DNA of 64,000 bases, from the NCBI GenBank assembly GCA_012295275.1, contig CM022674.1:8742001-8806000 (forward strand), in the 5' to 3' direction. Numbering within the stretch: the stretch's first letter is position 1; every line of letters starts with the position of its first letter. This document shows, one piece after another, positions 6,623-62,609 of this stretch. The DNA is from Chrysomallon squamiferum (taxonomy: Eukaryota > Animalia > Mollusca). Position numbers and translations under genes: made by a program. The notes under the pieces were generated by a model. The model made no database searches, was not told where the DNA came from, and saw only the letters and a program-made list of their open reading frames with translations.

Positions 6623-20536
<13,914 letters not shown>

Positions 20537-35793: not shown

Positions 35794-37867
35794 ATGAGAG
35801 CTCAGTGTTGTATATGTGCAGACCAGTTTGAAAATGATGACAGTGTTAACATTGCTGCAGCACCATGTGGTCATACTTTTCATGAAATTTGTGTTATGCG
35901 ATGGTTGAAAACATCCAATTCTTGTCCACATTGTCGAACAGTTATTAACAAGAGTAAGGTTGGTGAAATGTTGTTTTATTCTCGATGAAAGAAATAAAAC
36001 TCCTCTTTTTTTAATATTGGCATGCGCGAAATGAGGTTAAGAGCTATAAAAGTATAAATATATATAATTTTTTTTCTTTCTGGGGATAAGTAAATCAGAT
36101 GTCTCCAGTTTGTAGTAATACTGAAGTGGACAATTTCTTAGAAGAAACTGCTTTTTCTTACTGCAGGCTGATCTGAAAATTTTAAAAAGCTAGAGTAAAT
36201 TAATAAGTTATGTTAAACCTTTTTTCAAAAATTCAGATGCTACTTAAAACATGTATCATAAACAGCTCTTTATATCTTTGTCAGATAAAGAATTTTTAAT
36301 CTATGTAAATATTTTAAATGATTATTTTGAATTTTCAGGTGATAAAAAAGCTGTACTTTGATATAGGAGATGAACCAACAACTGACAATGATTCAGCTAA
36401 ACTTGTCAACCAGTTATCAACTCTTAGAACAAAAATCTTGGAAAAGGAAAAAGAAAAGAGTGACCTTGAAGACACAGTGGGTGTATACATGCATAAAATA
36501 GAAGACTTTAAAGAAACCCTAAAGGGAGTCAGTCTACTGTACAAACAGGAGCAGAGCACCAGCAATGCTCTTCGTAAACAACTCTCTCTCTTCGAGTGTC
36601 AGCAGAGGGTGCTGGAAGCTGAAAAAAAACAATACAAAGAAGCTCAAAAGAAACTCCACACACTGAAAGATATAGAAATGTTATTAACAGGTAGTTAATG
36701 ATGTCCAATCAAACAGTGTAAACAAATTTTGTATATTTTCAAAATTTTCAAATAATGATATAGCCAAAATAGTCTCTAATTTTATATTAAGATATAACTG
36801 CTTTTAATGTCTGCAACAGCCTGATATATTTTACAAAAAATGTTTAAGTCTAAAAATATTGATTCTTTATTTGTAATATTTATTTAATTTATTTATTTTG
36901 TTTTGTAAAGGGCTATTGGCTGTTTTTTTGTTACCTTGCAACATTTTATTATTAGGACAGGCTAAGATACAATTATTTCAAAGCTAGAACATTTTATTTT
37001 TTAAAACAGGTTACAGTGCTAGTGCTACTGTTCATTTTAATTATTTTATTTTCAGGATGTGAGAGTGATACAGAAGAAATTATATCACAGTATGGAGAAG
37101 GTACTGAGGCATCAAAACAGTTGGCTAAATACTGTACAATTATCAAACGTGAATATGAAAAAGTGAAATCTGAGAAAAGAACTATAAAAGAACATTATGA
37201 GAAAGTGAGACGAGAACTGTTATGTAAAACTCACCTGTTGGAAGAAAGGTCAAAACAGCTAACTGCTGTTACAGAACAACTTAGACAGTCAGAAGAAGAA
37301 CTGACAAACTCTGAGAAGGAAAAAGACATTTTATATAAGAAGCTAAATAAATTGAAAAAAGCAATTTCCAGTCCGTGTGGAAGTTCAAGTTTTATAGAAA
37401 CACTGACTGAAGAAAGTCCTCTACTTAAAACTTCACAGAGTAAAATGCTGAAAGACCAGTCTGATGAAACAGAGCGACAGTTACAACTTTCTCCAGATCT
37501 GTTTGAAGACACTCCTAGAACCAAAGTCAAACGACACTGTGATGACAATAAAATTAAATTTGTCAAAATTAGCTCAGCGAGGGATAACAATGCAACAAAA
37601 AGACAAAAACTTGAAGTTGAGGATTCAAATAATTTGGCATACCTGAGTGGTTTAAACATCTTCAAGAAAAAATCTGGTACAAGTTGTGTCAGTGCTATAC
37701 GAGAGGGATATGATGGACTTGGAGGTCACACAACTTTCACACAGCCATTAGGACAGAGAAAATTTACTGTTTCAAAGAAATTACATTCACGATCACAACC
37801 TGCAAAGAAACTAAGTATGACAACCAAATGTCCACCCTTGCCAACAATGGATGGATTCCTATCCTGA
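35794..37867 (+). CDS. TRAIP: TRAF-interacting protein, RING E3 ubiquitin ligase, ~442 aa, 3 coding exons
   Basis: Exons 35794-35958, 36339-36690, 37056-37867 (1329 nt). N-terminal RING-H2 CCICADQF...APCGHTFHEICVMRWLKTSNSCPHCR followed by IKKLYFD, a coiled coil, the TRAIP motif GYDGLGGHT and a C-terminal PIP-like TMDGFLS. Confidence 0.93.
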
Positions 37868-40905: not shown

Positions 40906-43900
40906 TCACACAACAGTGTTTTGTGCTTTCGTTTTCCTTCGATCTCGCAACTGTCTGGTAACCACTTCATGTACGTCCACAGTCTCTGGTGTCTCCATCA
41001 CACTGGGCTGCAGACAGAAACAAAACACAGTAGAACTGCTGTAAACATACTCTAATTTAATGTTAATTTTTTAAAGTCTTTTCAGAAGGATGAAATTTGA
41101 GAGACTGCAAATTACATTTTATGTGTTTGTGTGGGATACAGACTATAAAATGAGTGTCTGTAATCTATACATTTTTGTTGTCTTTGTTGTTTGAATATGT
41201 AACCAAAGATTACAAGGTAATACTCACAACATTCCTCAGAAAAATATATAAAATTTGATTCTTATTGAGGAAAGAAACAAATTAATGTAAAAGTAACCTC
41301 TTCCTCATCTAACTAGTTGACGATAAATGTTTGTAACTTGATGATTACTATTTGACAAAGCTATCAAGATATATCTTAAATCACCTATACTTTAATAAAA
41401 TATCTAATAATGGATGTAAGTTTTGGAAACAGTTTTTATGTAAATACTATTTACTAACCATGAAAGGGGCACAATCGAAGGGAGCTGATATTGTTTCTTT
41501 ATAAAGTTGTCTTTTTCTGCTTCCTTTTTTTGATGATTCTGGTGTCCCATTACTTTTAGCAGCTGGAAAAATAGAATCTATCTCACTGTACTTTTCTGAG
41601 CTGCTTTTTCTTTTTCGTGAACTCAGAAAGGTTTTTTTTTCTTGTTTGTTTAAAACAAATAGTTATTTTGTTAAAGTGTTTAAAAATAATTTTTTAACAA
41701 TGTTAATCAAATTATTTATCAGGAGTAAAATTAGGAGTACCAAAGAATAATTATTTTAATGTTAAAACAACAAGGTTATATTAGCATTAGTTTGAGTGAC
41801 CAATGCAGACATCCACAGTCCAGTTCAAACAGTGACCATCACAAAGTCCATTAGACCAGATCCAGAATGTGCAAAGATCCACAATTGCAAAATAAAAAGA
41901 ATAAAAATATGTTAGCAAAACTAAAGATAAAACAGAACATACTGAATGATAATCTTATTTAAGCATTTACTTTTTAATCATGCAATTAGTTAACATAGGT
42001 GAAAAGAAAATAATTTCACTGAAATCAACTTCATTTCTCTCTATATATATCAAAACTATTATTTTTTTAATAATTAAATTTGTTTTGTTAAACTTCTTTT
42101 AATATGCTGAATGTACATTACTTTGCGTAAGTAATTTAAATATTATATTATAATACTGTGTTGTACTTTATTGCAGTCACATAATTTAAATATTTTATTA
42201 TGATACAGTTTTGTACTTTATTGCTGTCACGTAATTTAAATATTTTATTATAATACAGTGGTGTACTTTATTGCTGTCACGTAATTTAAATATTTTATTA
42301 TAATACAGTGTGTCAAGTAATTTAAAGTATCGTACTGTGGCAGGAACAGTTGTGTGATGTGTTTTACTAAATGTACTGACCTGCTTTAACTAAAGGGGAG
42401 TTGCCTGAAACAATGTTCAGTATTTTTCCCTTGGCTATGCTGGCTGCTTTCCGCTTTGGTCTCCTCTCTGAACTTTCTTCCTGCTGAATACAATTAATAC
42501 AGGTTTATGTTCAATCTTTTTATTTCTCTTTGTATTGTTTATTATTGTAATAGATGATTTAAATGTCAGCATCAGTAATGTACACAAATAACATTTTAAC
42601 TAAATACTGAAGAAGTCAATATGAATCAGGAGTCAGCAAAGTAGTCACTGGGACTATTCAAAAGGGGTCAATTCATCAATAAATAACCAATGCACATCCA
42701 AAACTATATGATTCAAATAGATATTATTATGCCAGATTTACACAGCTACCTGTTCTGTTTGTATCTCTGTCTGGTGACATCTCTTTCTGAGAGACTTTTT
42801 CAATCCTTTGACTGCACTAGGTGGAGTTGCATCAATCGTCAAATGACCTCTTGTGTCAACATCATCATTAACAAATACAGGAGCAGGAGGAGTTGAAATG
42901 CCCTAAAAAACAACAACGTAACATTTACTACATAACACAGACACTGCTAATAAAATACTCCAAAATAAAAGAAGCACTGACATTACAAATAAATAAATGT
43001 CTTTTTAAGCAGAATATTCTAATGTTGTTTTAAAATATTTGTTGTTAATTTTTGAGAACCTTTAAGATTTTGTTGTTAATTAAAGGACAATATTAAGATA
43101 TTTCTCGAATAACAGAAAATGTTACATGTTCATATCTTATGACGTAAATCCATCCTTCTACCATAGAACACCTTCCTAGAACATAAATAAATGATATACA
43201 TACATGGAAAAAAATATATACAGACACATCTTTCATACAACACATAAATTTCTCTCATTGCAAAGACAAGTGGTCACTTATTTTTAAGATCTGAAATTCA
43301 TCCCAGTGTTACAAAAAGAAGTATGTTGTATACCCAGCTCACTAATTACACTTCCGAAGTGTAAAATATCTGACATAAATGTCCTTGGCAATTTCTGGAG
43401 CATAAAAAAACTGTGAAACGTCATCCCAGTATTTAAAAAAAGTATGTTGTAGAACCAGGTAACAGAAATTTTATTTACTAATACAACTTTGAAGCATAAA
43501 AAATATGTTAAATAAATGTCCGTTATAATTTCTGGAGTATTAATACGTCTGTGACTATTGTTCTCAGCAGTCAGAAAGCATTATCTACAGATTACTAAAC
43601 TGTGTGACCATTTGTATTTACAGTGTGTTAAACAACCTGCAGCTTGGCCACCTGTTGTTGAAGCTGACTGTTTGACATCTTTAAGTCTGAGATGATTGCC
43701 TCGTTAGCTTTCATACTGACTTCTGTGTGAGACTGTAACACTGCCTTCTCCTCCCTCACATTATGCAACTGAAACAGAGAAACAGTCTGAGTGTGTGAGC
43801 ACTCAGGAGTGTGCATGCATGTATGCTTGTGTGCATGTTATTATTTCATTTTCAGTTAAAGTTTATATATGTTGATGGGAAAATGAATACTTTTTTTTCC

Positions 43901-44457
43901 CACTGAACTGTTGTTTTGCTACTCAGTATATAATGAAATAAATATTGTTATTATTAAAAAGTTAAAAAAAATATGTATTAATTATTTTTTTTTTTTCAAT
44001 ATGTCTCTTATTATATTATTACTAGATTTTATAATATCAAAGAAATATAAAAACAGTAACTTTGAATTTAAAAAAAATATATTTTTAGTTTGTATTTGTA
44101 CACCATAATTAGCAATATTAAAAAATATCAGGAGAAGTGCAAAGCAAGTATGTTACAGTATTGGGAGTTAAAGCATTTAAGGTTAAGAAGAGAGCTGAAC
44201 ATACAAACAAGTATTATAAAATGGAAACTTGAAAAATGTTTGATATTCTGTTTAGTGATGTATAAATGTGATTTTTTTTTTTACATTAACCTTTTTCTTT
44301 AGTTCTTTGATTTCAGCAGCCTGATCCTTTAGTAATGTTTCCAGTTTGCTGACAAGTTCATCACGATTTTGACGCCAGATCTGCAATCACAGAAATTTCA
44401 ATATACATGAAGTAATAAAGAAAGGACACTGGTAATATTGGTTGCTTCAAAACAAAC

Positions 44458-44509
<52 letters not shown>

Positions 44510-46371
44510 TCAGTTATTTATTTTAAATGTCTTAAAACTTCAAAATAATGTCATTTCAAACCAATCACTTATATAGAGGTGCTAACCTGCATTTTTTCAC
44601 TGTTTTCTGACAGTTGTTCATTAACTTTGGTCAGTTCTTTTTCCAGATGTTTCTTCTCTTTTTCTAGCTTCAGAATCTCAAATGACTTACTCTGTAAAAG
44701 TGTATTTTGAAAACTAATGTAACAGGGATATGAGAACAACTGAATATAAAGAAAATGTGGTAGTTTTAGAGGTTTACAGAAAAGCTCATATAACCGAGGA
44801 CAAACATAACAAACAGTGAAATGTTGGATTTACTCAACATATAAACAGACCACACAAATTAGCTAGTGCAATAAAGAAGGTAATGACAGCAATTCTAAAT
44901 TAATTATAACAATGTAATAATAATACTCAGATGTTGATTTGGAAATTTTATATTTTTCTAAATATAGTATTTAAAATAAAAATTAATAATGGATCAACTT
45001 ATTGATAATCTTAAAACCTTCAACAATGTTTACAGAATTCATATTCAAAACATTTCAGTTATTAGTTGTGATATGGTGCTATTAAATTTTACTATTAGTT
45101 ATGGTTGAAATTTGATAAACTTTATAAACATTTTATTCAAAAAGTTTTGATCATTAGTGAATTTGTGATAAGGTTTTTCTGACAGACAGTTAGAGAATCT
45201 CTATCATACACATAAAACTGCTTCATCTGAACTAATTACCTTTAACTGTTCCTTGAGTGAATTGTATTCAGTTTTCAGCTGTTCATCTGAGCTACTGTGT
45301 TCTTTAACTTCATTGTTCTTTTCTGTATAACAGTAAACAAATATTCTTTAAAATGTTAAACATTAATTAAAAAACATCTAAAGTGTTTAAGAGAAAAAAT
45401 AAGTAGATGACTTTAAATTAATGGGTGATTTAAAGTCAGTGAAAATTGGTGATAAATTTTGATGGTTATAAAACAGGAGTTTATAGATAAATAATATTAA
45501 TTGATATAAGAAAATTGTTTAGAAATTCAATATTTCACTTCAAAGTTACATCACACAAACACACTAAACTTGACTAATTTAATTACCTTCAAAAATATAT
45601 TTTACCTGTTAGTAATTTTTCCAGACTGGCAATGTTTACATTGTTTTCATGCAGCACTGTGTTAAGTCTGTCTTTGTCTTTAGTGAGACTGTCAACAACA
45701 TGTTTCAGTCTGCTGCAGTCAGTGTTCAAACTTTCCTCTCTGCGCTGGAGAGCCTTGTTCTCCTCTAACAGCTGACACTTCAACTGATTCTGATCACTGA
45801 CGCCTTTCTCTTCAAGTGTCTGCATTTCTTCAAGCTGTTTTTCTGTCTTCCTTTGAAGAGCATTTCGTTCTTCTGTCAACATCTCTTCTCTCCTCTTAGA
45901 CTGTTCAAGTTGTATTAGGTGTTTGTCAACCTGTCTTTTTAGATCAGCACATTCCTCTTTTATCAGTTCTTCTTTCTTCTTCATCTTCTCCAATTCTTCT
46001 CTCTGTGTTTTCCCTTGTCTTTCTATTTCACCTTTCTCTGACAATAACATTTCTATCTGTTTCTTCAATCTATCTACTTCCTGTGTCTGACTTTCTAGCT
46101 GGCTCTGCAAATGTTTGTTGTCTGCATCCTGCAGCTTTTCTTGTCTCTGCTGCTCAGACATATGTTTTTTGATTGTGTCCTCCAGTAGGTCTTGCTCCAC
46201 AGAAAATTTTTCCTCAAGTTTTGACAGCTGATTTTCTTTTTCTGACTGCTTTTCTCTTACAAGCTTCAGCTGATGTCTCTCGGTGTCCAGTTGTGTCTGC
46301 AGCTGTCTTAACTCTTAAAATAAAAATAATAAAAAATATATATATATATATATACATATATACATATACAT

Positions 46372-46460
<89 letters not shown>

Positions 46461-48206
46461 TACACACATACGCCTCTTTAAAAAAAACTTATATTCAAAA
46501 TGATCTTCAATTTTATTGTCTTAATTATTTTTGGTTTGCATCCTTTTTCCCCCTTTGTTTTCATGTTTGTTATAGGTTATTCAATTAACTGAACCAGGGT
46601 TATTAACATAGTAAATAAAACAAACAGGTTTGTTTGGAGAATTAATAAAAGAAGTAATAATTACCATCTTGTAGAGACTGAATCTCTTCATCTCGTGAAT
46701 TCAAAACAGCATCCTGTGTTTCCATGGTTTCCTCTTGTTCCTGTATTACTTTCTTCAGTGTTTCCAGTAGGTTTTCATTTGCCTTAGCATCTGTCAAACA
46801 CACAAGTAAGCTTCATATTCAATATTTTTATCACAAAATTGGTGTCTTTGGCTGCTACATATATATCTAATATTATTATTTGTGTAATGATTCTGAAAGA
46901 AAAGCATGTGCTTGCACTAATTATCAATCAGCAATTTAAAAAAATGTAAAACCATTTGTATTATCAGAGGCAGATTAACTTATCAAAACAAAATACTTCC
47001 TATTTTTAATTGTACAACCTTTCAAAGCAATTTCAAATCTTTCTCTCTCCAACTCTAACTTCTGTTTAAGTTCCTTCACTTTTGAACTTTTTTCATCAAG
47101 TTTTTCAGTTTTACGTTTAATGTCTAACTTCAGCTCTCTCAGCTCCTCTTCCTTACTCTGTGAACCTGATTCTTTTTCAGCCTAATAATTAAAATCTTAG
47201 TTTAGTAATCATCACAGAAATGCAGGGGAAAAAACAAATACAACCCCCAGAAATTGGAAATGCGATTTCCACCTCCAGTGCAGATTATCAAAATATAAAA
47301 TTATGAACATTAAATTTTACATTTATGTAATCTTTACCATAATCTACAAGTTGCTATGAACACATAATTTACATGCCAAATTAATCCTACAGTATATAAC
47401 AGAAAACAATTTATTTAAAAAAATAAAAAGACTGAAATATTAATAAATAAAATTATATGAAAAATGTTTCAAAATGCAATATTTAGATTTTTGTAAACAA
47501 ATATATGTATACTTGGAGAGCACGTAATGTATCATTCAATGTGAGTATCCTCATCTCCTTTTTAGACAGGCTCTCCTCCAGCTCACTGATTTTCTCCATG
47601 TTCTCCTTCAGTGTGCAGCTTGCCTGCTTCAACTGTTGTCTTAGTTTACTCTCCCGATCTTGACTCTAGATTGTGTATTTAACAGTTTTAATTATTATTG
47701 GAAATCAGATGATTATATTGTATCATGAATAAAGAAACCGTCTAATAATAGAAGTAAGAAGATATCGATTATGTTCACTTTCCCAACACAGTAACACATT
47801 TTATAATAAGATTAATAGTTTTCATACAAAAAATTCTTTAATATTCAGAAATACTGAGAAACTGTAACTTCACTATTCTGTAGCATAGAAAAACTAGTAA
47901 TACATTTGGTTAAATACAAGTATAAGAAAATGTTTTAGAATTCTTACCTTTTGTAGCTCCTTGCTGACGAGAGATTCTGATGAGGACAGGTAATTCGGTA
48001 CAGGTGCTGTAGGAGTGTCTTTCAAACTCGATTCAACATTCTGCAGTTGTTGCTGAAGTGAAACTATCTGTCTCTGACTCAACTCTAACTCCTCACATTT
48101 CCTCTTCAATTCTTCTTCTTTTACCTCAAGTTGTTTCTTTAGTTCAGTTAATCTAATAATTAAATAATTACACTATTTATATACACACACACACACACAC
48201 ATTAAC

Positions 48207-48262
<56 letters not shown>

Positions 48263-51200
48263 AGCTTTTTCTGTTTGGATATTATCTTGCAGTTAATCAT
48301 TATTATAAATTATAAACATGGTGTTTACTATACTAAATTGATTATTAATGTTTCTAATAGACTGAAAAAGGGGCATTTTTTCATATAACCTGTATTCAAA
48401 AGGGCAGAACTGACAAGATCTCATAGTCAAAATTTTATGATTATTTGATGGTGCTAAAACATGCTGTTTGTATTTGTCTATTCGTGCTTCAGATGCCAAT
48501 TATATTTCTGGTATTAACACTGGTTTACTTGACAAACTAATGCCTTCACATTCTATTGAGAATTTAGGCAAACGAGGGCACTAGGGCAGCCACGAAAAGG
48601 GGCAGGGTGGTCCACCTTCTTGTTTCTTCAAAGGGGAAAAACTAACTATTCCCTTTACATTATCAAAGACTATGGTATGTGCTCTCTGTGGAGAAGGTGA
48701 CCCTAAATATCCATTGTACATAATCATATAATCAATAAGAGGCTAATTGCCATAAGTTGCTTTGTCTAACACTAATAAGTTGATAAAAGAAAACACTCAC
48801 TTATTATCAAGCTGTACATCAGAAACATTCGGACCAGAATTATTTCCATCTTCAAGTTTTTTCTTTAGAAGCTCCAGTTCATGTTTGGTGTTGATAAGCT
48901 TTAATTCTAGTCCTATCTTTTCTTTCCGGAGTCGCCTACTACATCCAGGCATGGATTCCATCTCCTCATTTTTCATACTGAGAAGAATAACTTCGAGTTC
49001 CTGGTTTCTCTTTTTGTGAATCTCCATCTCAGAATGAAGCCTGGACAACTCCTGGGAGTGAAGTTCACTTGAAGAAGAATCAACTGTTTGAGTCTTTTTA
49101 AGTTTCTCTAGCTCAGACTTGTATGATTCTATCATCTCTCTTGCTGATGTCAAATCATTGTTCAACATTTCAAGCTGTTCTTCCAATGATGACACTGTTT
49201 TTATTTTGTCTTCCTTTAACACATTAAACTTGTCATTAGATTCACTCAGTTCACATCTCAGTTGTTCCAGAGTCTGTCTCTCATCATTCAGTGTCTGCTG
49301 ACACTCCTCTCTGATTCTCTGCTCAGTACCTTTTTCTTCATTTAGTCTTTCTTCTTCATTCTTCATCATTTGTTCTTTTAGTATTGTCATTTCAGTTATT
49401 AGCTTGTTCTTTTCATTTAAAAGTATCTCATTTTCCTTCTTATTTGTTTCATTTGCTTTCATTTCCTCTTCCAACCTGCAGGAAAGTTCAGTTTTCTCCT
49501 GTTTGTATTTGTTATGAAGAGTCTTTTCCATGTGCAATGCAGACTTGAGTTCTGCCAACTCTAAGATTGCAGTATTTAGCTGTTTGACTTTGTTTTCTCC
49601 CTCACCTAACTGAGACTTCACTTCACTCAGTGTATGTTGGACTCTCTCTAGATCACGTTCCTTTGAAGACAGTTCATTCTGTAAACCTTGTATTGTCAGT
49701 TCAGAGTCTTTCTTTGACTTCAGTAATGCATCCTTAACAGACTCAACTTTTTCTTTCAAAGCCAATAGCACATTTTCATTTTCTTTAAGCATGTCTACAT
49801 ATTTTTCTTTCTCCTTCTTAATTTTTTCAATTGTAACTTCTTTTCCTGTCAGCTGTTTTTCTAATAGTTTCTTACACTGTTCCAACGCCATAACTTTATT
49901 TTCTGTGTTAGAAGCCGGACTCTTCTGTGAAAGTTCTTCTTTCTTGTCAAGGTTTGCTCTGAGCTCCTGCAGCTCAATCTTCATCTCACAACATTTACCT
50001 TCCAACTCACAGCTCTCAGCTGTTTTCTCATCCAATTCTGACTTCAGCTTATTTAGCTCATTATTAATAGAGTTTTCTTTGATTTTCATTTCTTCGACAA
50101 TCTTTCTCAACTCAGAAGCCTCCACATTCAGCTCTTCAAATTCCTGAACTTTTAATTCTAGTTCACATTTAATAGCAACATGTTGAAATTTTTCTTCCTC
50201 CAGTGATTCCTGGAGCTGTTCCACTTCTTGTGAGGCAACCTGCCACTTCTTTTCAATATCTGCCATTTCCTGTTTCATTAATTCAAGACTTTTCACAATT
50301 CTATCATAATCCTTAAGTTTATCATCAAATTCTTTTTCTTTCTGGACAAGAATATTTCCCAGTTCATTCTGCTGTTTGTTGAAAGCATTGTGAAGTTCTT
50401 CCTCTCTCTGAACTAACTTTGACTCAGCATCTTTCAGTTCTTTGTGCTTTAATGCCATGTGTCTGTTGAATTCTTCTTCTTTTGATATCAGTTTGTCCTG
50501 CAGGTCTTTGACAGTGATCTTGAACTTGTCATCCATGTCCTTCAACTGCTGAGTAAACCTGCTGTGTAAATTATTCTCCTCTGTTGACAGTTTTTCTTTC
50601 AACACAAGCAGATTCATAGACAATGATTCACACTGCATTTGTTGTTCTGTCACTTGTGAATTTAGTTTAACTACTTTCTGTTCAGTTTCCTCAAGTTTAG
50701 CTTTTTTCTCTTTTAAGTGACTGAGCAGAATCTGATTTTCTGAAGAAAGTTTTTTATTGTCTTGATCCAAAGTTTGTATTTGAGTTTTTAGTTCAATTTC
50801 TTTACCTGCAACCAAACATTTCATGTGCTCCTCTTTCTTACTAAGGTCATTGGTTGTTTGACTGATCATGTCTCTCAGTTCTGTATTCACTACTTCCAGC
50901 TCTTCCACTCTTTTCTCCAACTGTTCTCTTTGTTCATCTTTTTCTCTAATATCAGACATTAGTTTGGAGAGAGTTTTCTCAAAATTTTCTTTAGCAGAGT
51001 CCAACTCGTTTTGTTTATTAACAACCTGTTGCATCAAGTTCTCTAACTCTGATTTCAAAATTTTATTTTCCTCTTTAAAATGTTCTACCTTTGACTTGAA
51101 CTCCTCCATACTAAACTCAGCATCTTTCAATTTTTCTTCCTTACACAGCAACATACCAGCCAGATCTCTTAACTGTTCCTGCAAATCTTTAACTTTCTGT

Positions 51201-54200
51201 GAGAGTTCTTTCATTTCTTTCTCTTTCTCAGTGTCAATATTTGTCATCTCCATCATCTTAGATTTAGTCTCTGAGTGGCTGCAACACTCAGCTTCCAAAT
51301 GTTTATTCATATCCTCCAGTGTTGACTTGGAAATTTCTGATGAGTGTTCATGAACTGTAGGGGTCTGCCCTGACTTGTCTAAATCACTCTTCAACATTTT
51401 TATCTGTTTGTTCAGATCTTCTCTGACACTCTCCTCTTTCTGTAGTCTATTTTCCAGCCCAACCACTTTTGTTTTGAGTGCAAGCAGCTGCGACTTGTGT
51501 GAGTTGATCTCTGCTGTGTAGCCGTGTATGAGAGCCTGGTCTCGCTTAGCTGACTCTTCTTCTTCTTTCTTCAGTTTCTGCTTGACCTGCTCCAGCTCCA
51601 AGTCCTTGCTGGCAATGATCTGGTCAAGTCTTTTGATTCTTTCTTCTTTCTCTTTGATCAAACAATCCAGCTCTAATGACTTTCTAGATGGCTTACTCTT
51701 TTCAAGCTGTTCCAAATGTTTCTTCAATTCTTCTATCTGATCTAAAATAACAATAATAAGCATCTGTTATTTTTCAAAATATTCCATTCAAAGTACAATT
51801 AATTATGTTATTACTGTTACATTTCTTTTTGCCAAAAATATTCAATGTTTTATCCAAAACAAAAAGACAAATCTATATGTGACACACTAATTACTGAAGA
51901 AACAGAGGTCAACATAAAATCAAGGTATACAGTATAGACTGTGTGTAATGAAATCCACGTTCCTATAAAAAGAACGAATATTACTTTAGTTACTATGACT
52001 TAAGGAAGATTTTCTCTAGATCTCTGTATGAATGGAAGTCTGGAGCATGATGGCAAGATAATCAATCCTCCTTGATACTTCTAATATTACAGCTCCACTA
52101 ATGGTGTTTCAAATGTCATGATATATGCTTTCCTTTCTATAAGAAAATTCCCATAAAAGAATCCAAGCCATTGATGGTGGTGCCAAATGTTTGGATCAAG
52201 TACAGTCAAAACATGTAATCCGAAGTTCAGGCAAATGTTATATGTCTAATTTTGCTGAACAAATTTAAATGGTATAGATCTGGGTCCTAGTATTTAGTTG
52301 TAAATAATTTTAGAAAGTATCAGTCAAGATTACTTGAATCAGCAACCTTTTCTCAGCATGTGATGATAATTTAAGACAAGGTTTAATGTTTTAATTTTTT
52401 TAAACAAGTATATTTTTATTGATGCATGTCTAAAGTAGTTTTTAGAACTGAATACAATATGTAAGACATCATTCCTCCAAAGAGTACCAAGTTTAATAAA
52501 CAGCCTCGGTCAGTGAGAAATACATTTTGAATCTATATCAACTAACTAGGCTTGCACTCTGGATACTATAAGATTTGTATGAGCATACCTTTTTCGCAGA
52601 AATTACAAGCTGACTGGCTGCACACTGCTAAATCTGTTTCATAGTTATTCTTTTACTAAAATATGATGCAGTATGTCTAAAAAAAACCTGTTACTTAATT
52701 ACAGATAGTCATACTAAGAGGGTTTGTTTCTTTTATCAGTTTTTCACCTGTTGTCAAATAAAGATGATATTGAAAGACAAATTTTTACTAAATTTTTTTG
52801 CCATTTCACATAGCTGTGTCATTGTTAAATTTAAAGCTATTATACATTCTATTGTACATTTTGAAGATAAAGCCTGGTGAACTGTATCATGTAACCAGTG
52901 AAGATCCAGATATCAACTACAACCAACCAGTTCTTTAGTCAAATAATCACAACTCTACAATCAATGAATAAAGTTTAAGAGAATCCATCCATTCATAACT
53001 TGAAGTTGTGTTTTAAATATTTTATAGTGTCATAAACATTTCTACATGTTGATTTGATGAAATGGCTTCACCGTTTGTTTTTTCTTTATTCTCAGAAGCA
53101 ACCATTTATCAGCCATTATTTTATAAAGAGTAATTTAACTTAAAGATGTTTATAAATGCTAATTCTCAATGTTTATCTTTAACAGGAAATGATTAGTAAA
53201 GAATATCTGTAGATTAAAATGTGTTTTTTGCTTCCAAGTGATTATTTTATTTTACACTGGATTATTATGACTTATGACAAATTATGAGGATATGCAAATG
53301 TTATGAATACCTTTTTTGTCACAATACATTTCCAAAATACAAATATAAAATAAATTCTGTGAGGATTAGACTGGAGCAATTCTGCACCTCTGGTTTATTT
53401 AATATAATCACTTTATTTTTAATGGAAGCTGTTTACAAGAAACAAAATGATCACTTGGAATAAAAAAAATTATTTTATTAAAAATTAATCTTCAGAGGTA
53501 CTTAAACAATGTTAGTAAAACAAATTTTTTTAGAAAAGTTTGCTTTCAGCAATGTGAAGAAAAACAACAATAAATATTAAATTTAATTAATCAAATCATT
53601 TCCCCCAGATGGTGGCAGTCACAGCTGTCCCCCTTGCAGTGTATTTTACCCGACTGGTGACTTTTAGATATCCAGTGAAATACCTCTGTATGAACAACTG
53701 TTACTTTTAACTCATAGTTTTTAGTTTAAGAAAATTAATATGTCAACTGAAAGTTTCATTACTTTTGTACAATTTTATTTTAATTTTTATTTAATTTTTT
53801 TTTTTAACTGTTCAAATTTGAGATATTTCAATTTAAAAAACAAATAAAAAGAATCAACCATAAATTAATCATGTATCCATGCTATTTAATGTCAACAACA
53901 ACAATAAAAATAGTTTTTTCCCTAAAGTCACCAGCAGGAAAATTAATACCTGCAATGGAAACAAAAGGACATCCATTAGTATCAAAGAGTTGTCTTCTCT
54001 TTATACTGCCATCTCAGAGACTGAAATAAAAACAAATATGCCTCATTAGTTTACAGTTTATTAGTTCAGTGGTATCACACAGTATTTACAAACCTGACTT
54101 CAAACAGAAAATGAAAATAAAGCACTAACCCCCAACCCCCCCAAAAATACAAAAAAGCATTTTATAATAACTATACAGTGAACTTATCTAAACTAAACTC

Positions 54201-57200
54201 TCTGTAAACCAAAACGACTTCAAAACCAAACTTATTTCGTGAAACAATGTTCTCTATAGCAAGACAGCAGTCTGGTTATTCTGTGAAAAGTTTTCATCAT
54301 TCACCTAACTCCTTTATGTTTATGATTATTAGGAATGAGGTTAGTATATTTCTTGTCATTTATATATTATATAAATGACCAGATAAGCAGCTATGAATTA
54401 AATATTTTATTTATTTTTTGTATGTATACTTCTTGCGAAGGCTATTATTTCAAACATCAATAAAATAAACACTTCTCTAAACCAAACAACTGATCTGATC
54501 TCTAGGGTGTTTGGTTTACAGGAGTTTCACTGTGTGTGTGTATATAAATACACACACATAATCTTGTAGTTATAAAAAATATTTCAGAATGGCTGTTATC
54601 TAGTAGAATTACTGTTCTCACAAAAATCAGAAATGTTAACTATTTTTATATAATTTTTTTGTTATTTTCTTTTTTTATTGTCTTTACACTGAAGGAAACA
54701 GAATGTGAAGTTAAGCAGATGAAGTATGAACAGATGGATACTTTTAAAAAAGCTTCTAATAATATTCGTTGTCATTAAAATAAGATTAGAAAAAGAAATG
54801 TCATGATTGAAATAATTAAGTACTGCATTTCAGAACAAGTAAGAAAAATTTAGATGCTGGTGTCTGGAGTCTGAAACTTTTGATATAACTTATAAAAAAA
54901 ATCAGTTACCACTGTGTATACTTGAGTGTGTGCAGTTTTTACTCTTTTTAATGTTTGATATGTATGGAAGATTCTCTATTTCTTACAAGAAATATCATTT
55001 GTTTTGCATCTAGAACACTGCATAAACATATCATTTTTATCATACAACCTTAACATACCTCAATTCAGACAATTCTTCAGAGTATTTTAACTTAAGGAAT
55101 ATTAAGCACAGCAGACTATGTGAACAAATATGTCAACTTCCACGTTAAATGTATTTTAAGTGGAGCTAGTGTTGTGTTTAAACAATATGCTTCAGAAAAT
55201 ATCTCGATGTGTAGGATAAATAAATACACACATATTCATTTACAATCGGTGATTCTCATTACACATTTACAAAAAATCATTTGACTCATGCTTTCACTCT
55301 CTGTGTCTCAGATTATATTTCTTGGAACCCGATTTTCGCCTCAGTCTAGACATACTCAGTCTCTTTCGGATACCTTTACATTTTTTATTTATTTTGTCCT
55401 CTTCTTTATCAAGCCTACAAGTTTTGTCAAGTGGGGCAGGCGAATTTTCCTTGTCATCCAGCTTGCGCTTGCAATCTTTAATCTTATCAGAGGTCCTTGA
55501 TGGACTCCTCATTCTCATCAGACTGGTTTTAGTGTGCCTGGCAAACTTTTGCAGTGGTGTAACCACAACTCTGAGAACCCTATTCTGCTCTGTCCGTTTA
55601 ACATAATATTCTGGCAGGACATATTTTGAGGTGGGGGTGGGAGATGAAGAAAGTATGTCTAGATCTGCAACACTGATGTGGCGGTCTGCTGGTGTACTAC
55701 AACCTGCTAATGAAGCATCTGCAATGCCCGAGTCAGAAGTACCTTCTCTCAGGAGAATTTGGCTCTCCAGACTCGCCAGTTTCTCATTCTTGTTACCAAG
55801 GCGAGTTTTGCTCTCCTCTAGTGCCTCACTGCTCTTGGCTAAGGTTGTCCTCAGATCACAAAGTGTTTCAGCCTGAAAACAAAACTTTTAAACATTACTA
55901 CAAAACATCATATTATTACATCACAAGATGCATAACGTCAGGGATGGAATTCAGCTGTTGTTGTATGTAAAACACTGAAACCCCAGTTTAAACTTTACCT
56001 GTTTAAAAAACACTGACAAATTAGTTAGCTGTTGTTACTGATGAAATACTGACAGACAAGTCTAAGCTTTACCTGTTGTTTTAGTTTCTCCTCATCTTCC
56101 TGGCAAGCTGTCTTCAACTTCTCTATTTCCTCCTCCTTCTCCTGGAATGTCTCTGCTGCCTCATGCAACATCTCAGTCAGATCTGTAATTTTTGTTTCCT
56201 AAAACAAAATCAAAAACACAGCTCTCAGTAAGCCATTCATAAAATCACTTTAAGTTCTTTTTAAGGATCTCTGCATCAAATTACAATGGATATTTGATTA
56301 AAAAAATAATAATAAAAAGAATAAAGTGCATATATATTTCTTACCTAGCTTAATATACTTTGTTATTAGCAATAGTGACTCAAAGAAAAAGCAATTGAAT
56401 CAATTACTAATTTAAAACTGTTAAATTTTTACTTTTTATATATGGGGATATAATTTTAATTAGGATATTAATGCTTTTTTTTACCTGTTCTCTAATAGTT
56501 TCTCTAAATCTCAGGTTTTCTCCTAGTACCTGCAAAAGAAATTCATGGACAGTTGGATAACATAACGGTAGATACATGATAATATTTATTTATCATTAAG
56601 TTCTTATGAAGTTATATTTATTATTCATCAAGACATGAGGGATTTCATCACTTAAAAAAGCATCAAGAAAAACTGATTTTAGTATTTCTCTTTTAGGAAT
56701 ATTTTAAAATTAAGGAATATATATATATATAAGAATTCTTTAATTAAATTATCAGATGTTAATTTCATACCTGATTCATTTGTTCTTTCAGTTCTTTCAT
56801 TAAGCTTTTTTCACTGAAAGACTGAGAATCAATATTCTGTAACAAAAATTATTAAAATGTTTAATATTACATTATTTTATTAAGTTGAAAATACTAACAA
56901 ATATCAAAAGATGAAAAGGCTGTAACAATTTCTTATTCCATCCATTAATCAAAATTTTTATTAAGTTTATCAGAGGCATGTAAATTATTGCCTGTGGGTT
57001 GATTTAATAATAATAAAAAAAACCTAACACTTTGTAGAAATGGATCTAATCTTTGATTTAAAAAAAAAAAGTGAAAAAAAGTAAAATGTATGTTTTATTT
57101 GTTTAAAATATACACATTCATTTTACATTAAAAACTCCAGAATGTTGTTACTTTTTGTGATATTCGTTTTTCTTCAGCTAACTGGAACTGTAGAGATGTT

Positions 57201-60200
57201 TTCTCTTGTGTCAGAGTCTCTACATCTTTGTTCAGCCTGCTAATCTGAGACTGCATTTCTTCTAGCTTTTTGTTTAATTCCTAAACAAATACAGAAATAA
57301 CGTTTTATTATTATAATTATTTTTAGACAAATACCAAACTTCATTAATTTCAGATTTTCATTTATTTTTATTTATATTCACAACATTGAGTTCTATTTAT
57401 GAAATGTTTTCTTTACAAGTTTCACCTAATAAGTCACAGCTGTTATACAATTACATTTTTAACTTTTACCTTTGAAAAATCCAGACTCTCTGCTAAACAA
57501 ATTTAATATATTTTTGTGTCAATGATCAGCTGGGTTTTTCATTATAAAATTTTAAAAAGTAAATGAATATTCAATTTGTTGATTAAGACCTTCTGTGCTT
57601 AATGTCCTGATCAAGGTAAAATGTTCACCTACCTCAACTTTGACTTTTTCTGCATGAAGCAGCATAGAGGAAACAAACTCATCGTCATCATCATCATCTT
57701 CGTCCTTTCTTCGACGTTTGTTTTTGTTCACTGTTGACATGAACAGTTTCACACGCATTTCTTCTTTTTCTATTTCTTTCTCTCGGATTCTTTCACTTCA
57801 AACATAATTTGAGGAAATATTATTTACAGTAATTTTTTATTTGCTAAAAGTTAGCTATAGAAATGCTTTTATTTTATTTCACTACAAAGGTTGTTTTCTT
57901 AGACAATCTTTAACCTTCATTAATTGGCAAGTTATTTATTTTAGCCATTAACCGAATTAGTGGTTTTGCTAAAAACAATGATAATTATGGCTACCTGCAT
58001 TCGTCTTCAATTTCAATAATCTGTCTCATCATTTCCTCACACACCTCCTGTCGAATCTGAGCTTCTAATCGTATCTTGCTTCGTCTTTCTTCATTCAGTT
58101 TGTTCTCAAGAGCTTTTATTGTCGCAAGAAGATCCTAAAAAAAAAAAAAAAGAGATTTAAAAACTGGTGAAATTCATTACCTTTCACACTGCAAACTTTG
58201 TTGTACATTATTTCTGTGTAATGTACATCTAACGTTTGATGGGTCACTTACGTCTATTTCCTGATCAGTCTCCTCTAGGTCACTGTCATCATCTTCTGGC
58301 AACCTGACATTCTGCACCATCTGCAAGTCATTGTCAATCTTCCTTAGCGTGCGAGGGGTTGGAGGTGCTTCCCATGGTATTGAAGGGCGAATTGCTGGAT
58401 ATTCTTTAATGCTAGTCTTTTGAGACATTTTGGGCTTAGGGTCTTGTTTCTGAACCACAACAACCTAAAGTGAAATTTTTGTATAAAATAATCAACTTCT
58501 GAAATGCCAAAACAGAAAATTTAACAATAATTAAAAAATAAAGATATGGATAATGGAAATCCAAAAATTATTAAAATGGCAACCATCAAACATTAGCAGA
58601 ACACTTTTAAACAATATAGGTGGATAATTACTATGATAATATTATACTCTGCAACTAAATCTTCTATAAACATTCATTTAAAAAACAAAAGTTATAATAA
58701 TTTAGTAAAGAAAAACAAAAAGAACCACTAAAGGCATTCAATGGGATTTTTTCAAAAAAAAAAAAATACTTTTTATATCACTTGTAAAATAACATTCAGT
58801 TTCCTACCTGTTTTGCAATAGCTGAGAATTTGAGTACGTTCAGAGTTTCATCAAACATGCTGCCACACTGGTTCACATTCACTATCATCGCAGCTTTGCC
58901 TCGACCACAAAAGAAATTCTGGAACAATCTTGTAAGCTTACTTTCACGGAATGGAACGATCTTAGGATGTTCTCTGGGAAATACAACATGATAGTTTGAT
59001 AGACAGAAAACAAATTTACTCAGAAACTGAGTATGGAAATGGAAGTGTCAAATAAACTAAAGATTATTATCTTCCTAGGGTAAATACCATTACTATTATT
59101 TTAGTTAGGTCACACTATTTCTTTCCTGCTTTTATTTATTTTTTCATTCACAAACCAGGGATTGTAATGAACTAAAATAAAAATTAATTATAAATAGTGC
59201 AATTTTAGTTCCAATTATGTGCCTTTTTTTATATTCTAATTTTGTTCTCTTTTTCAAAAATGAAAACTTATTTATTGAAAAAAACTAACTTGTGCAGCTG
59301 GTTATATCGAAGAAGATCGATGCATCGTCCAAGTGTCATTAGTGACGTGTTGATATTCCCAGCCTCTTTTAACCTATCACCTGTCGCATGAGTTTTAGAA
59401 CTTCGCTCTGATCCAGCCAGATCACAAAGTGAAAGCCTACGTCAAAAAACAATAATTCTTTCAAAAATCACACATTAAATAACTACATCTGGTTTGAAAT
59501 GAGATAATGATTTTCTGTATATGTCCTCACATCCAAATTTCAAGAAAAGAAACCACTCACATCATGATCTATATACATTGTTATTACTGTGACTTTGTAA
59601 AAATTAGGTATTCAAAGAGAAATAGCTCAGCTATGTAATTCAAAAACAGCAGTTTATTATTCACTATAAGTGTGCAAAATACAAGCTCTAGCTTTTGTAA
59701 TGACTGAACAGATTGAAACAATAATCATCAAAAAACTTACTATTTCAAGATGTTCTTTAATTAAATGCATCAGATTTAACAGTGTTCAAGGAAGACACTA
59801 TTTACTTACATGCTAACTCTGGCAAAATGGGGATTCTGACAATCGCTCACTCTTATTATCTTGATATTGAAAATGCAGTGACTAAAAAAATAAATAAACA
59901 TCTTCGTGAATAATTTCTCTACCTTTTTCATAAATGCACATGACATAAAATTCAGGCTGTCTTCAAAGAGTGACAAAAGTTTAGTAATGTAAATACCACA
60001 TTATACATATTTTATAAAACAGATTTAAAATTTTTGTAAATTAACTGTACAAAATAGTATACAGTCTGACCAATAAGAACATATTAAAAATATTAATACT
60101 AAATATACTTTCTCACCTGCGAGATGAATTATGATTCAACTTTGTACAAGCCATTCTTAAATTTTTCTGTCCAACAGTCAGCAGTTTATATGCTTCATCA

Positions 60201-62609
60201 GCATTTGTCACACAAATCTCTTTCAAGCCTAAAAAATTAATTTTAGAATATTTATTTTCATTACAAATAATGGTCCAAACATTAGTAAGTAACTGATTAA
60301 TATAAACACAATTCTGAATGAAATAAAAATTATCATGTCAAATTTCTTGATAGCTGAATAATGATGTAATAAGCACTTTGAACACAAACGTTCTTGCCCA
60401 AGCACATTTTGCAATAAATCTAATTAAACTTTTACCTGACTTATAACTATTTTATTAAACAAATACTACGTCACTGCAATGTACCTTTGATATACGGACT
60501 TCCATTTTTATCATCTCTAAGACCAAGAATAGGGCGTCTGGAATTTTTCTTTTTTGGGATGGGATCAAGCAGGTCAAATATCTGTTCATTGTAAATCTCA
60601 GCAAAACTGACCCACACAGAGAATCGAATCTGTCCCTGGTCCGCCACGCTGACTGCAGTTTCCTCCCGGATACGGTTTTCAAAATCAGCAAACAGGTCAC
60701 TTGTGTTGTCAGTAGACTCTGAAATAATAATAAAAAGAAAAGATATAAAACAAAATACAATTTTTTTTAAGATTTAATAACAGCTTATAGCTGATTGATA
60801 ATGTTACTGAAACTGTGGATATATCTTTGAAATAAAACACTAAGAATGACAACAGCAGAAATAACATTATAACACAGCAAGTTTGAAAATCCAACAACAA
60901 AAAAAATTACCCAAGTGACGTTCAAAGTTAACTACGTTAATAAAGAGTAACTTTTCATTTTGATACTAACTATTATTCTAAATTTGTTTTGATATACTTT
61001 ACCTTTATGCTGTTTATCAAGGGCACTAGATACATTAGAAGAATCTGATGAAACCGTTGAATTAATCACAGACTGGTCTGAGGCATTTTCACCAAGAAGT
61101 GTCATAACATCTTGATCCTTTAACAAAACAGCATTGTAATTTTAATAAGCAAATATTGAAAAATAGCTGTCTCTTATTAATAATTAAATAAAACACTGGA
61201 AGCTACACAGCTAAATTAAAAAAAAAAAAATTTTATAGTGTAGCAAATCTAATAGATTATTTCTATAGTCACATATTTTTGGACATTTCTTCATTACCAC
61301 AACTACACACTTGGTGTGATGAAAAGCATTAAATGTCAGATTCAATACCATTTTTAAATTTGAATATTTTCTATGACTCACATCCTCAGAGCACATCTTC
61401 ATCACTTGTTCTTTAATCTTATTCTCCGTCTGAATCTGATTTGGAGTCAGCTTACATACATCCATGAACATCATTGGTTTGTGGTTCACTGCGCTACACT
61501 GCTTAGAATCAATGCTGTTAAACAACACATCCAGTGTCCGAGGCAAAATACCAGCATCACGTGGCTTGCCTGGATAGGGTTAATAAAATTGGTAAAAAAC
61601 ATTGTCAGTAGTTATTATATCTGAATCTAAAATTATATTTTCTGAAAAAATATATTATATATTAAAATAATAATAAGTGTAATAATCCAGGTGGTGAAAG
61701 AAAAAAAGGAATTGATTAAATTTAATTAATTGATCTAAATTATGAAGATTATCATTCAAAAAATAACAATCATATTAAATATGCATATGAAAGATTTACA
61801 ATGGGTAATATTCTACAAACTAACCTTGAATTGTGTAAGTTTTTCCAGAACTGGTAATACCATAGGTAAACACCAAGCAGTTCTGTCCTTCTATAAAGTT
61901 CTGCACGAGGTCAAGCATAGAGGAATCAAAAAATTCTTTCTGTGTTGTTTCCTCTGGGAATATTTTAGAAAAAGTGAACCTGTGTATTGTTTTTCCTAGA
62001 CCATGTGAAAAGTTTCGGTAAGTGTGAGAGTCTTTGGGTGCAGATGTAATTAATGTGTGTTCATTCTCAATCCTAAAGCAGTTCTGAAACACACAAATTA
62101 TGTTTTCACTATTAACTGACCTCTAAAACCAGATTTTTCTTTGTTTTGCATACCAATGTATGTCAGTGAAATAGTAACATTATTTTAAATATATTTTTAA
62201 TTACAATGCAACAGTAAAATAATTAACGGGAAACAAATGAACTTGAATACAAAATGATTATCATATTGTCATCTAATTATTTATTTATTAGAAGTCAAGA
62301 TATAAAAAAAAAATTGAAACCAAATTAAGATTCAGAAAATTCCTCTATTTATCAAATAATTCTAAACAGTCTTTTCACAGCACAAGAAAATGTTATTACC
62401 TGATTTTCTTTTCTATCAAAATCTGCTTGAAAGAAAGGACGAATACGCAGATACACTTTCATGTGTTCTGCTAAGTGAATTAAGTCATTTTTGTTGAATG
62501 TATCCAACAGATTCTTCTTAGCTCCAATAAAGTCGACATCATCATCAATCACTGACTGACAGTTTGGATCTTCCAGAATATCTGTGAACATTCGTTCTCT
62601 TCCTGACAT
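40906..62609 (-). CDS. KIF20B: Kinesin-6 family KIF20 (KIF20A/KIF20B-type), long isoform ~2514 aa
   Basis: Motor motifs [18 protein letters not shown], the long loop-6 insert, [17 protein letters not shown] and VPFRESKLT. Shared exons: 62609-62400, 62083-61825, 61569-61382, 61117-61003, 60718-60485, 60228-60117, 59881-59810, 59436-59290, 58973-58808, 58464-58252, 58134-57995, 57795-57633, 57280-57152, 56836-56771, 56529-56485, 56198-56073. Long-form exons: 51736-48801, 48152-47948, 47665-47513, 47181-47019, 46790-46665, 46313-45606, 45322-45240, 44691-44587, 44380-44291, 43768-43637, 42902-42750, 42480-42381, 41562-41459, 41007-40906. Tail motifs [29 protein letters not shown] and [13 protein letters not shown]...HEVVTRQLR resemble KIF20B. 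Confidence 0.9.
42131..42310. repeat. 50-bp minisatellite, ~3.6 copies, in KIF20 intron
   Basis: Unit GTAATTTAAATATTTTATTATAATACAGTGGTGTACTTTATTGCTGTCAC starts at 42131, 42181, 42231 and 42281 (partial). Confidence 0.92.
43290..43543. repeat. Diverged ~120 bp tandem duplication in KIF20 intron
   Basis: TCATCCCAGT...AAGTATGTTGTA...ATAAATGTCC...AATTTCTGGAG occurs at ~43290-43405 and again at ~43412-43543. Confidence 0.7.
44460..44506. repeat. (TG)n microsatellite
   Basis: Read directly. Confidence 0.95.
46336..46471. repeat. (TA)n/(CA)n compound microsatellite
   Basis: Read directly; it begins about 20 nt upstream of a KIF20 splice acceptor. Confidence 0.95.
53598..54028. mobile_element. Degraded inverted-repeat element (MITE remnant)
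   Basis: Left ATTTC...AGATGG(TG)GCAGT...TTGCAG...CTGGTGACTTT and right AAAGTCACCAG...CTGCAA...ACTGCCATCT...GAAAT are reverse complements with indels. Confidence 0.5.
54176..54532. mobile_element. Tc1/mariner (pogo/Tigger-like) MITE remnant
   Basis: Begins TA|CAGTGAAC and ends GTTTCACTG. Subterminal CTGTAAACCAAA and TTTGGTTTACAG are inverted motifs. The right TA TSD is obscured by a TG run. Confidence 0.55.
55294..55872 (-). CDS. Alternative terminal exon of the KIF20 gene (short ~987 aa KIF20A-sized isoform)
   Basis: TTTTCAG acceptor ending at 55873, then 192 open codons in phase 0 with the 56073 donor ([25 protein letters not shown]...DSGIAD...DKENSP...KKYNLRHRE*), with coding-like composition and a TGA at 55296-55294. 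Confidence 0.75.
   Translation of the reverse strand, partial: AETLCDLRTTLAKSSEALEESKTRLGNKNEKLASLESQILLREGTSDSGIADASLAGCSTPADRHISVADLDILSSSPTPTSKYVLPEYYVKRTEQNRVLRVVVTPLQKFARHTKTSLMRMRSPSRTSDKIKDCKRKLDDKENSPAPLDKTCRLDKEEDKINKKCKGIRKRLSMSRLRRKSGSKKYNLRHRE

Follow-up and report, generated by a model that had tools for sequence, protein, structure and literature searches.

The vertebrate kinesin-6 genes KIF20A and KIF20B are known as cytokinesis, microcephaly and cancer genes; their tails are described as unrelated, and the long stalk of KIF20B is regarded as having arisen in vertebrates to serve larger brains (PMC5374676, PMC5909929, PMC9603694; the stalk as a vertebrate innovation in the latter two). 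PMC3002031 places a Mad2-binding consensus at residues 871–879 in the tail of human KIF20A (MKLP2), whose CPC-binding region includes an RRSQR element (PMC7337490). Composite-terminal-exon intronic polyadenylation is defined in PMC5928244, which also reports an intronic-polyadenylation isoform of human KIF20B, and SKI7/HBS1 provides a case in which the two isoforms of an ancestral gene were later replaced by separate paralogues (PMC7491326). Here we analyze a KIF20 gene in a 64,000-nt stretch of Chrysomallon squamiferum DNA (the window). We consider it probable that a splice/read-through switch 130 nt into exon 17 yields either a ~2585-aa or a 987-aa motor, and that this switch is ancient, with the vertebrate paralogues having inherited its layouts.

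The gene lies on the minus strand (Table 1). Its frame stays open for exactly 795 codons, the number proposed in a sequence-only reading of the window, through 16 GT-AG exons to a phase-0 donor at 56073. Pfam Kinesin matches exons 2 and 5, indicating an N-terminal kinesin motor domain, and the named matches to exon 2 are KIF20-type or hypothetical kinesins. That reading let the donor at 56073 choose between two acceptors, one opening a short-only exon (55872–55294) and the other a coiled-coil exon at 51736, to give mutually exclusive 3′ ends. The RNA contigs place the choice at an internal donor that is used or read through. In all three RNA runs with contigs (X1, X2 and X3, from one study; a fourth, X5, gave none), exon 16 joins 55872 and nothing else; no contig breaks off at 56073 in a loose end, and the junction 56073>51736 is not seen in these contigs, which drop rare variants. 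Each run instead shows a loose end at 55743, and the 30 letters of this end are identical to window positions 51741–51712, defining a joint 55743>51741. Since RNA leaves at 55743 into 51741, the first 130 nt of the supposed short exon are shared, bringing the codons common to both forms to 838.

Table 1. Features of the KIF20 gene, in window positions.
Feature	Position	Strand	Basis
Exons 1–16, kinesin-6 motor and post-motor coiled coil, common to both forms	56073..62609	-	Open frame, GT-AG sites, Pfam Kinesin, RNA joint
Shared 130-nt part of exon 17, up to phase-1 internal donor AAG|GTACTT	55743..55872	-	RNA loose end into 51741; clam-like L001; amphioxus
Read-through coding tail of short form, 149 aa, and stop	55294..55742	-	X1/X2/X3 contigs, mollusc conservation, GC
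Predicted Mad2-interacting motif RVLRVVVTP, residues 893–901	55555..55581	-	Matches published consensus
Terminal KYNLR motif of short form	55306..55320	-	Shared motif
Short-form 3′ untranslated stretch as observed	54800..55293	-	X1 contig ends at 54800 without loose end
Long-form intron, 4001 nt, enclosing the short tail	51742..55742	-	RNA joint; intron comparison
Exon 18, 2941-nt coiled-coil exon	48801..51741	-	Loose-end letters = 51741–51712; acceptor score
Exons 19–31, long form, KIF20B-type end ([11 protein letters not shown] ... VVTRQLR)	40906..48152	-	Frame and homology

The rest of the proposal for 55872–55294 stands: the stretch is open for 192 codons to a TGA, giving a short form of 987 aa. 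An X1 contig covering 55772–54800 spans both the internal donor and the short-form stop, and shorter pieces of this kind occur in X2 and X3, so that the donor is both spliced and read through in RNA contigs. The X1 depths add up approximately (51.2 shared, 37.5 long and 11.9 read-through). Splicing out of the exon before its stop, an outcome the sequence-only reading had counted against itself, thus holds for the long form, while the read-through contigs preserve the short one. With both RNA paths seen, a single gene makes a short and a giant kinesin-6; its two 3′ ends are real, the short end is a composite terminal exon, and we infer that it is formed by intronic polyadenylation. Past the short-form stop, 55293–51737 has no open reading frame above 82 aa and none that looks coding, as had been predicted. 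Another contig, half as deep, extends over 54739 and further on, and poly(A) hexamers lie at 54952 (ATTAAA), 54679 and 54415 (both AATAAA); no poly(A) site was found in the RNA contigs, which cannot show ends. RNA reads were examined down to 54700, above the lower intron and the long exons. RNA cover extends further into the 4-kb intron (in X1, 0.60 of sampled words versus 0.51 expected), and the read-through signal may therefore include a contribution from unspliced RNA.

The read-through tail is basic and carries six SP/TP sites. It is open for 149 codons past donor 55743, compared with 1–56 codons at the gene's 29 other donors, and its GC content is 43% against 25% in the other introns; the tail is therefore not a product of chance. 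Its sequence is kept among molluscs (z 3.9–27), including gastropods, bivalves and a cephalopod-like sequence. The best-conserved block matches the Mad2-binding consensus reported for human KIF20A. A simple form of the consensus occurs in seven of 11 mollusc short tails, and a fuller form in none of 205 long-form ends and in 1.4% of shuffles of the window's tail. On this match in sequence, the short tail is predicted to bind Mad2. The end of the tail is shared as well: [KRN]YNLR occurs in 26 of 328 proteins of at least 600 aa, namely mollusc short forms, the interior of a Littorina model and an amphioxus short model. Pfam and Atlas gave no match for the tail, a PDB sequence search returned one match, attributable to chance, and the 192-aa exon, searched directly against longer proteins, hit none of 1347 candidates. 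In sequence character the tails are either coiled coil or of low complexity. As in other composite terminal exons, the final exon is formed from intron sequence behind a donor that is passed over. What sets this one apart is its read-through part, a long coding tail with motifs of its own that is conserved across mollusc classes and probably as far as amphioxus.

As proposed, the long form reaches 40906 by way of a ~2.9-kb coiled-coil exon followed by 13 more exons that keep the frame, but its entry is at 51741 and its length 2585 aa rather than ~2514. The acceptor used is the TAG before 51741, which scores 8.6 versus 6.3 for the CAG before 51736. Exons below 48801 were placed by frame and homology. 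A long-branch X1 contig of 5548 nt fits the 5243 nt of coding sequence plus ~275 nt of untranslated region. Like vertebrate KIF20B/MPP1, the protein has a very long coiled-coil stalk and a homologous C-terminal end, while its stalk is longer (~1750 aa after the branch). The three motifs cited earlier as KIF20B-like fall at residues 2335, 2535 and 2567, and the KIF20B-like character of the end is supported: it is homologous to the long ends of amphioxus, starfish and gar (z 7–17), and 79 of 120 fish KIF20B tails reach at least 15 bits against an invertebrate long-end profile, versus none of the 120 reversed tails. The homology of the long end to that of fish KIF20B shows that the long stalk did not originate in vertebrates; judged by this sequence homology, the description of the long layout as a vertebrate innovation is contradicted by our data.

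The dual layout is conserved in other molluscs and in a predicted amphioxus model. Among 15 listed members of an oyster cluster of 40, seven are short (952/956 aa) and four long (2302–2309 aa); short and long are near-identical to residue 798 and then part, G versus D. The oyster short forms lie on Logan contigs of 3.25–3.56 kb, and a Ruditapes protein pair (994/2558 aa) splits at the aligned site. A clam-like genomic contig (L001) has an exon of identical length, 130 nt, with a phase-1 AAG|GT donor and a 290-codon read-through to KYNLR, and models from Littorina and Mytilus carry the short tail followed by long-exon sequence in one locus. In amphioxus, a 976/2133-aa pair parts G versus D after the corresponding 43 residues; the short member is a single predicted model, and none of seven long-cluster members is short. 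The amphioxus short tail resembles mollusc tails only in KYNLR (z ≤2.0 overall) and lacks the Mad2 motif. Thus, among unduplicated outgroups, both forms are documented in molluscs by RNA and proteins and in amphioxus by a predicted model only, and the splice switch likely predates the protostome–deuterostome split. No short-tail form was found in the sampled echinoderms, corals or other invertebrates. The short paralogues of Montipora arose another way, with the long end kept. Our literature search, largely outside subscription papers, found no report of a dual-form invertebrate KIF20.

In a quick IQ-TREE motor tree, which included no named KIF23 row, the window gene falls within the molluscan KIF20s (SH-aLRT 99; 73% identity to Patella). 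KIF20A, KIF20B, a third vertebrate paralogue, which is short, and the lamprey sequence cluster together to the exclusion of invertebrates (SH-aLRT 100; support 1.0 in a separate analysis). The window gene lies outside the vertebrate KIF20A/B clade, so it is not a one-to-one orthologue of KIF20A, in agreement with its proposed status as pro-orthologue of both. Its short form resembles KIF20A/MKLP2 as a kinesin-6 motor of ~900–1000 aa with a coiled coil ending at the aligned place, a short basic tail and a putative Mad2-binding consensus, but it is an isoform, not a gene, and its tail of 149 aa, versus ~50, has no detectable alignment with that of KIF20A. No relationship of KIF20A tails to either invertebrate tail emerged in pairwise or profile comparisons: z did not exceed 2.3 against five short invertebrate tails, and scores on the mollusc tail profile stayed below 1 bit. 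The strict Mad2 pattern occurs in none of three sampled KIF20A tails (one matches loosely). The RRSQR element is absent from the window and four invertebrates and present in two of two fish KIF20A proteins. In metagenomes scanned for the last-exon DNA of vertebrate KIF20A, none of 507 pattern matches proved to be a relative.

The position of the KIF20A end agrees better than its sequence. KIF20A stops soon past the aligned branch point, and a mormyrid KIF20A isoform terminates exactly at the aligned exon 16/17 boundary. In KIF20B, a PP.KK|G site aligns with the branch, with 106 of 109 such sites followed by a residue with a G-initial codon, and two KIF20B-clade proteins stop 35–40 aa past it with a shared tail (z 6–7). 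KIF20B may still make a short form, as the human intronic-polyadenylation isoform would suggest; four supplementary files of the intronic-polyadenylation atlas gave no match to KIF20B. The idea that the vertebrate duplicates each kept one form agrees with the unique part of KIF20B, which matches the long end, but it is too clean given the third short paralogue. Since no sequence homology between the tails of KIF20A and the mollusc short form is detectable, and a short form may persist in KIF20B, isoform partition after duplication is no more than plausible. Compared with SKI7/HBS1, the partition looks incomplete, with three paralogues and a KIF20B that may keep both forms.

We propose that a KIF20 gene of single-copy type splices at, or reads through, the donor 130 nt into exon 17. 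This donor is fairly weak (scored with the gene's own matrix, only five of its 30 donors rank lower), and the 4001-nt intron behind it, the gene's only one of 4 kb, is its largest (median 300 nt), which could let cleavage compete with splicing; the short transcript would then likely end by intronic polyadenylation. The short form may act as a KIF20A/MKLP2-like spindle-midzone motor that Mad2 keeps off the spindle until anaphase, and the long form as a KIF20B-like long-range cross-linker with an ancient basic C-terminal end. After the vertebrate duplications, KIF20A and the third paralogue likely kept the short layout only, and KIF20B the long layout and perhaps the short read-through form as well. 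By our data the long layout is old, and the short motor of invertebrates comes from the very gene that encodes the long one. We hold tentatively, at somewhat below even chance, a bolder version: since the bilaterian ancestor, one donor has picked between a Mad2-gated short and a long-stalk motor, KIF20A is the short isoform frozen as a gene with the old composite exon as its last exon, and a KIF20A-shaped short isoform continues to be made from that donor by KIF20B, in humans too. The proposal offers a testable origin for the KIF20A/KIF20B pair, whose separation the mollusc gene likely foreshadows. On this proposal, KIF20B should have a short isoform, so far overlooked, that arises at a named donor, and checkpoint control of the KIF20 motor should be switched by RNA processing; the proposal also explains why database labels on one invertebrate gene read KIF20A or KIF20B according to length.

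The mollusc switch could also be a lineage innovation, made once or, in molluscs and amphioxus, twice, with an ancestral KIF20 that was long only and a KIF20A shortened independently by truncation or internal deletion. Long-type ends are indeed widespread, in corals, echinoderms, amphioxus and more distant rows; KIF20A tails match neither invertebrate tail, the Montipora short paralogues retain a long end, and the tail of a newt third paralogue shows a weak affinity for long ends (z 2.7–3.5 with the window and amphioxus, below 0 with gar and starfish). We nevertheless regard this course as unlikely, though it deserves real weight: molluscs and amphioxus agree in split residue, phase and a KYNLR near the end (77 of 200,000 shuffles, the motif having been picked after the fact), and KIF20A, the third paralogue and the two KIF20B-clade short proteins all stop within ~50 aa of the branch.

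The short form might also be no genuine product but an artefact of unspliced or incompletely processed RNA and of gene models that run through the donor, the long protein alone being made. The cover running into the intron and contigs that cannot show a poly(A) end would fit such an artefact, as would the named records among the listed members of the oyster and amphioxus clusters, all of them long forms; we consider it very improbable given the length and exon-like GC of the open tail, its conservation over three mollusc classes, complete 952–1000-aa frames on 3.2–3.6-kb Logan contigs of oyster and a cephalopod-like species, and zero depth in the adjacent 200-nt intron. Direct splicing of exon 16 to 51736, with 55872–55294 as a skipped terminal exon, would be in frame and might be lost from contigs as a rare variant, but the presence of 55743>51741 in three of three runs and of exon-17 residues in the long proteins of oyster, Ruditapes, Haliotis, Littorina and amphioxus leaves it hardly any likelihood. 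Scarcely credible is a separate gene from 51741 downward, for which an old oyster record with the last 323 aa as its own locus might be cited: RNA joins exon 17 to 51741, already refuting this for the present gene, and in relatives the motor and the long end form one protein.

The contigs place the branch between the short and long forms of the KIF20 gene within exon 17, at donor 55743. The region is present in five RNA runs; four were examined over 54700-56260, and three from one study (X1, X2 and X3) yielded contigs, on which, as opposed to single reads, all of the RNA evidence rests. The sole joint seen at exon 16 in these runs was 56073>55872, with no loose end at 56073; in all three, the letters of a loose end at 55743 are those of window 51741-51712. 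Contig depth poorly reflects transcript level. X1 contains a shared contig of depth 51.2 terminating at 55743, a 5548-nt contig of depth 37.5 beginning at that loose end, and a 973-nt contig of depth 11.9 crossing the donor and the stop as far as 54800; the long and read-through pieces of X3 have depths of 4.97 and 4.6, and X2 has a 154-nt tail piece (2.5). RNA depth was zero in the neighbouring 200-nt intron. Together, the loose ends and read-through contigs indicate that exon 17 is composite, with 838 shared codons followed either by splicing (G+AT, Asp) or by read-through (GGT, Gly). The sequence-only reading had joined donor 56073 to two acceptors, which the RNA contradicts; of its two junctions 56073>55872 was observed, and the acceptor at 51736 is replaced by one at 51741, entered from 55743. 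Its open stretch ending in a 987-residue product and its exon path onward to 40906 were both recovered (table). The contigs differ from the window at 55826 (three runs) and 55105 (one run), likely as alleles.

The read-through tail is coding. The frame stays open for 149 codons past 55743, compared to 1-56 past the gene's other 29 donors, and tail GC is 43% versus 25% for other introns (the window, AT-rich animal DNA, has 30%). Donor 55743 scores 6.3 on a matrix built from the gene's own donors, five of the other 29 scoring lower. The tail aligns to Patella, Mytilus and a cephalopod-like Logan protein (z 3.9-27), and also to oyster, Pinctada, Sinanodonta and Mactra. No poly(A) end of the short form was seen in the RNA contigs; a further X1 contig spans 54739 onward (depth 5.6), and 0.60 of the sampled words are present in X1 where 0.51 would be expected, which points to a contribution from unspliced RNA or a longer UTR. 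We nonetheless hold with high confidence that one gene yields both forms.

The dual layout expected in mollusc relatives was borne out. Among 15 members listed of 40, the oyster cluster holds at least seven short and at least four long proteins, alike up to residue 798 and then continuing with G or D. A Ruditapes pair (994/2558 aa, labelled KIF20A and KIF20B) is 98.9% identical across 880 aa, and its short tail lacks the conserved tail motifs. One clam-like genomic contig (of 90 pattern matches) has an exon of identical length, 130 nt, with donor AAG|GT and a 290-codon read-through reaching KYNLR. Littorina and Mytilus models carry the tail and then long-exon sequence in the same model. Both composite-exon intronic polyadenylation (PMC5928244) and the takeover of splice isoforms by duplicate genes, as in SKI7/HBS1 (PMC7491326), are established kinds; the literature searched contained no report of such a dual-form KIF20 (related work: PMC5374676, PMC5940148, PMC9581516, PMC13731759, bioRxiv 10.1101/158998).

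Features of the kinesin gene and its neighbours in the window
Feature	Position	Strand	Basis
Kinesin gene start	62609	minus	open frame with splice sites
Shared exons: 16 with GT-AG, 795 codons	62609 to donor 56073	minus	frame
Stretch open to TGA, total 987 aa	55872-55294	minus	frame
14-exon path of long form	about 51740 to 40906	minus	frame
Uninterrupted 374-codon frame	26339-27460	plus	Pfam PhyH match, E 1.2e-5
RING-finger-like exon	5285-5539	minus	by eye; without curated Pfam match
Coiled-coil gene converging on kinesin 3' end	36318-37864	plus	without curated Pfam match

The long-form model comprises 2585 aa, and its branch intron is 4001 nt long, where the gene's median is 300. The penultimate long exon (41640-41459, minus) has a poor acceptor in the present model; the real one may differ, making the protein a few tens of residues longer or shorter. 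Immediately upstream of acceptor 46313 lies a long (TA)n/(TG)n microsatellite (46350-46470).

Of the claim that the vertebrate duplicates each kept one form, the part on the long form is supported for KIF20B, which may have kept a short form too. At a threshold of 15 bits, a profile built from eight invertebrate long ends matched 79 of 120 fish KIF20B tails and none of 120 reversed tails, supporting the KIF20B-like character of the long tail; a short-tail profile matched 0/120 of the same tails. The long layout thus predates vertebrates, contrary to its description as a vertebrate innovation (PMC5909929, PMC9603694). The KIF20B PP.KK site aligns to the mollusc branch, with uncertainty across the coiled coil, and the following residue has a G-first codon at 106 of 109 sites, as a phase-1 donor would require. 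Two KIF20B-clade proteins on separate branches (P0264, P0329) stop 35-40 aa past PP.KK|G; their tails are basic and shared (z 6-7), and they may represent a short isoform of KIF20B that is conserved. Human KIF20B is listed among motors with an intronic-polyadenylation isoform in PMC5928244; the searched supplementary files gave no match for KIF20B.

For KIF20A, the evidence for an origin from the read-through form is positional: its coiled coil aligns weakly (11 bits) to exons 16-17, a mormyrid isoform terminates where the exon boundary aligns, and about 50 aa separate a PP.KK-like site from the end of the protein. Against such descent, KIF20A tails matched neither invertebrate tail, the RRSQR element of KIF20A (PMC7337490) was not found here, and short Montipora paralogues retain the long C-terminal end. 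We lean only slightly toward descent of KIF20A from the read-through form.

In amphioxus, a predicted model of 976 aa and a RefSeq protein of 2133 aa agree over the 43 residues that correspond to the shared part of exon 17 and then continue with G or D, extending the dual layout beyond molluscs insofar as the predicted short model is correct; the long protein's cluster has seven members, none of them short. The 128-aa amphioxus short tail contains KYNLR (77/200000 shuffles, for a motif picked post hoc) and is otherwise unalignable to mollusc tails. A scan of 328 proteins detected no comparable tail in corals, echinoderms or other invertebrates. The switch was probably shared with the bilaterian ancestor. 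A nemertean Tubulanus model (P0246) has a Ser/Pro-rich insert at residues about 910-1120, starting near the branch site and lacking KYNLR, possibly a read-through tail absorbed by the gene model.

As anticipated for a pro-orthologue of KIF20A and KIF20B, the motor tree (146 of 164 candidates, 18 with partial motors or overlong spans being left out) and a second, 34-row IQ-TREE quick search, with a midpoint root, unnamed outer rows and no named KIF23, place the gene within molluscs (support 99) and set apart one group that joins a lamprey form to KIF20A, KIF20B and a third short paralogue (100). That third vertebrate paralogue (P0119, P0247, P0256, P0269; sharks, newts and another) forms its own clade (98) despite its annotation as 'KIF20A'; the literature puts vertebrate kinesin-6 genes at three, KIF23 among them. 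In Montipora, the short paralogues (P0094, P0096) lie on the same chromosome-scale contig as the long one (P0029, P0100), with which they share 82% identity.

Dividing cells would be expected to favour the short forms. Human MKLP2 residues 871-879 bind Mad2, which keeps MKLP2 off the spindle (PMC3002031), and a putative motif in the tail's best-conserved block, RVLRVVVTP, fits the Mad2-binding consensus (PMC4657174). The simple pattern occurs in 7 of 11 mollusc tails (related sequences, not independent) and nowhere else in either window protein; oyster, Pinctada and the cephalopod-like row depart from it, and the Ruditapes and amphioxus short tails lack it. Among 205 long-form ends, 15 carry the simple pattern and none the fuller one, which arises in 1-3% of shuffles. 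Judged from sequence, read-through would yield a checkpoint-gated, MKLP2-like motor, and splicing a long cross-linker. Elsewhere in the window, a multi-exon gene at about 9000-20300 (plus) presumably resembles coatomer alpha.
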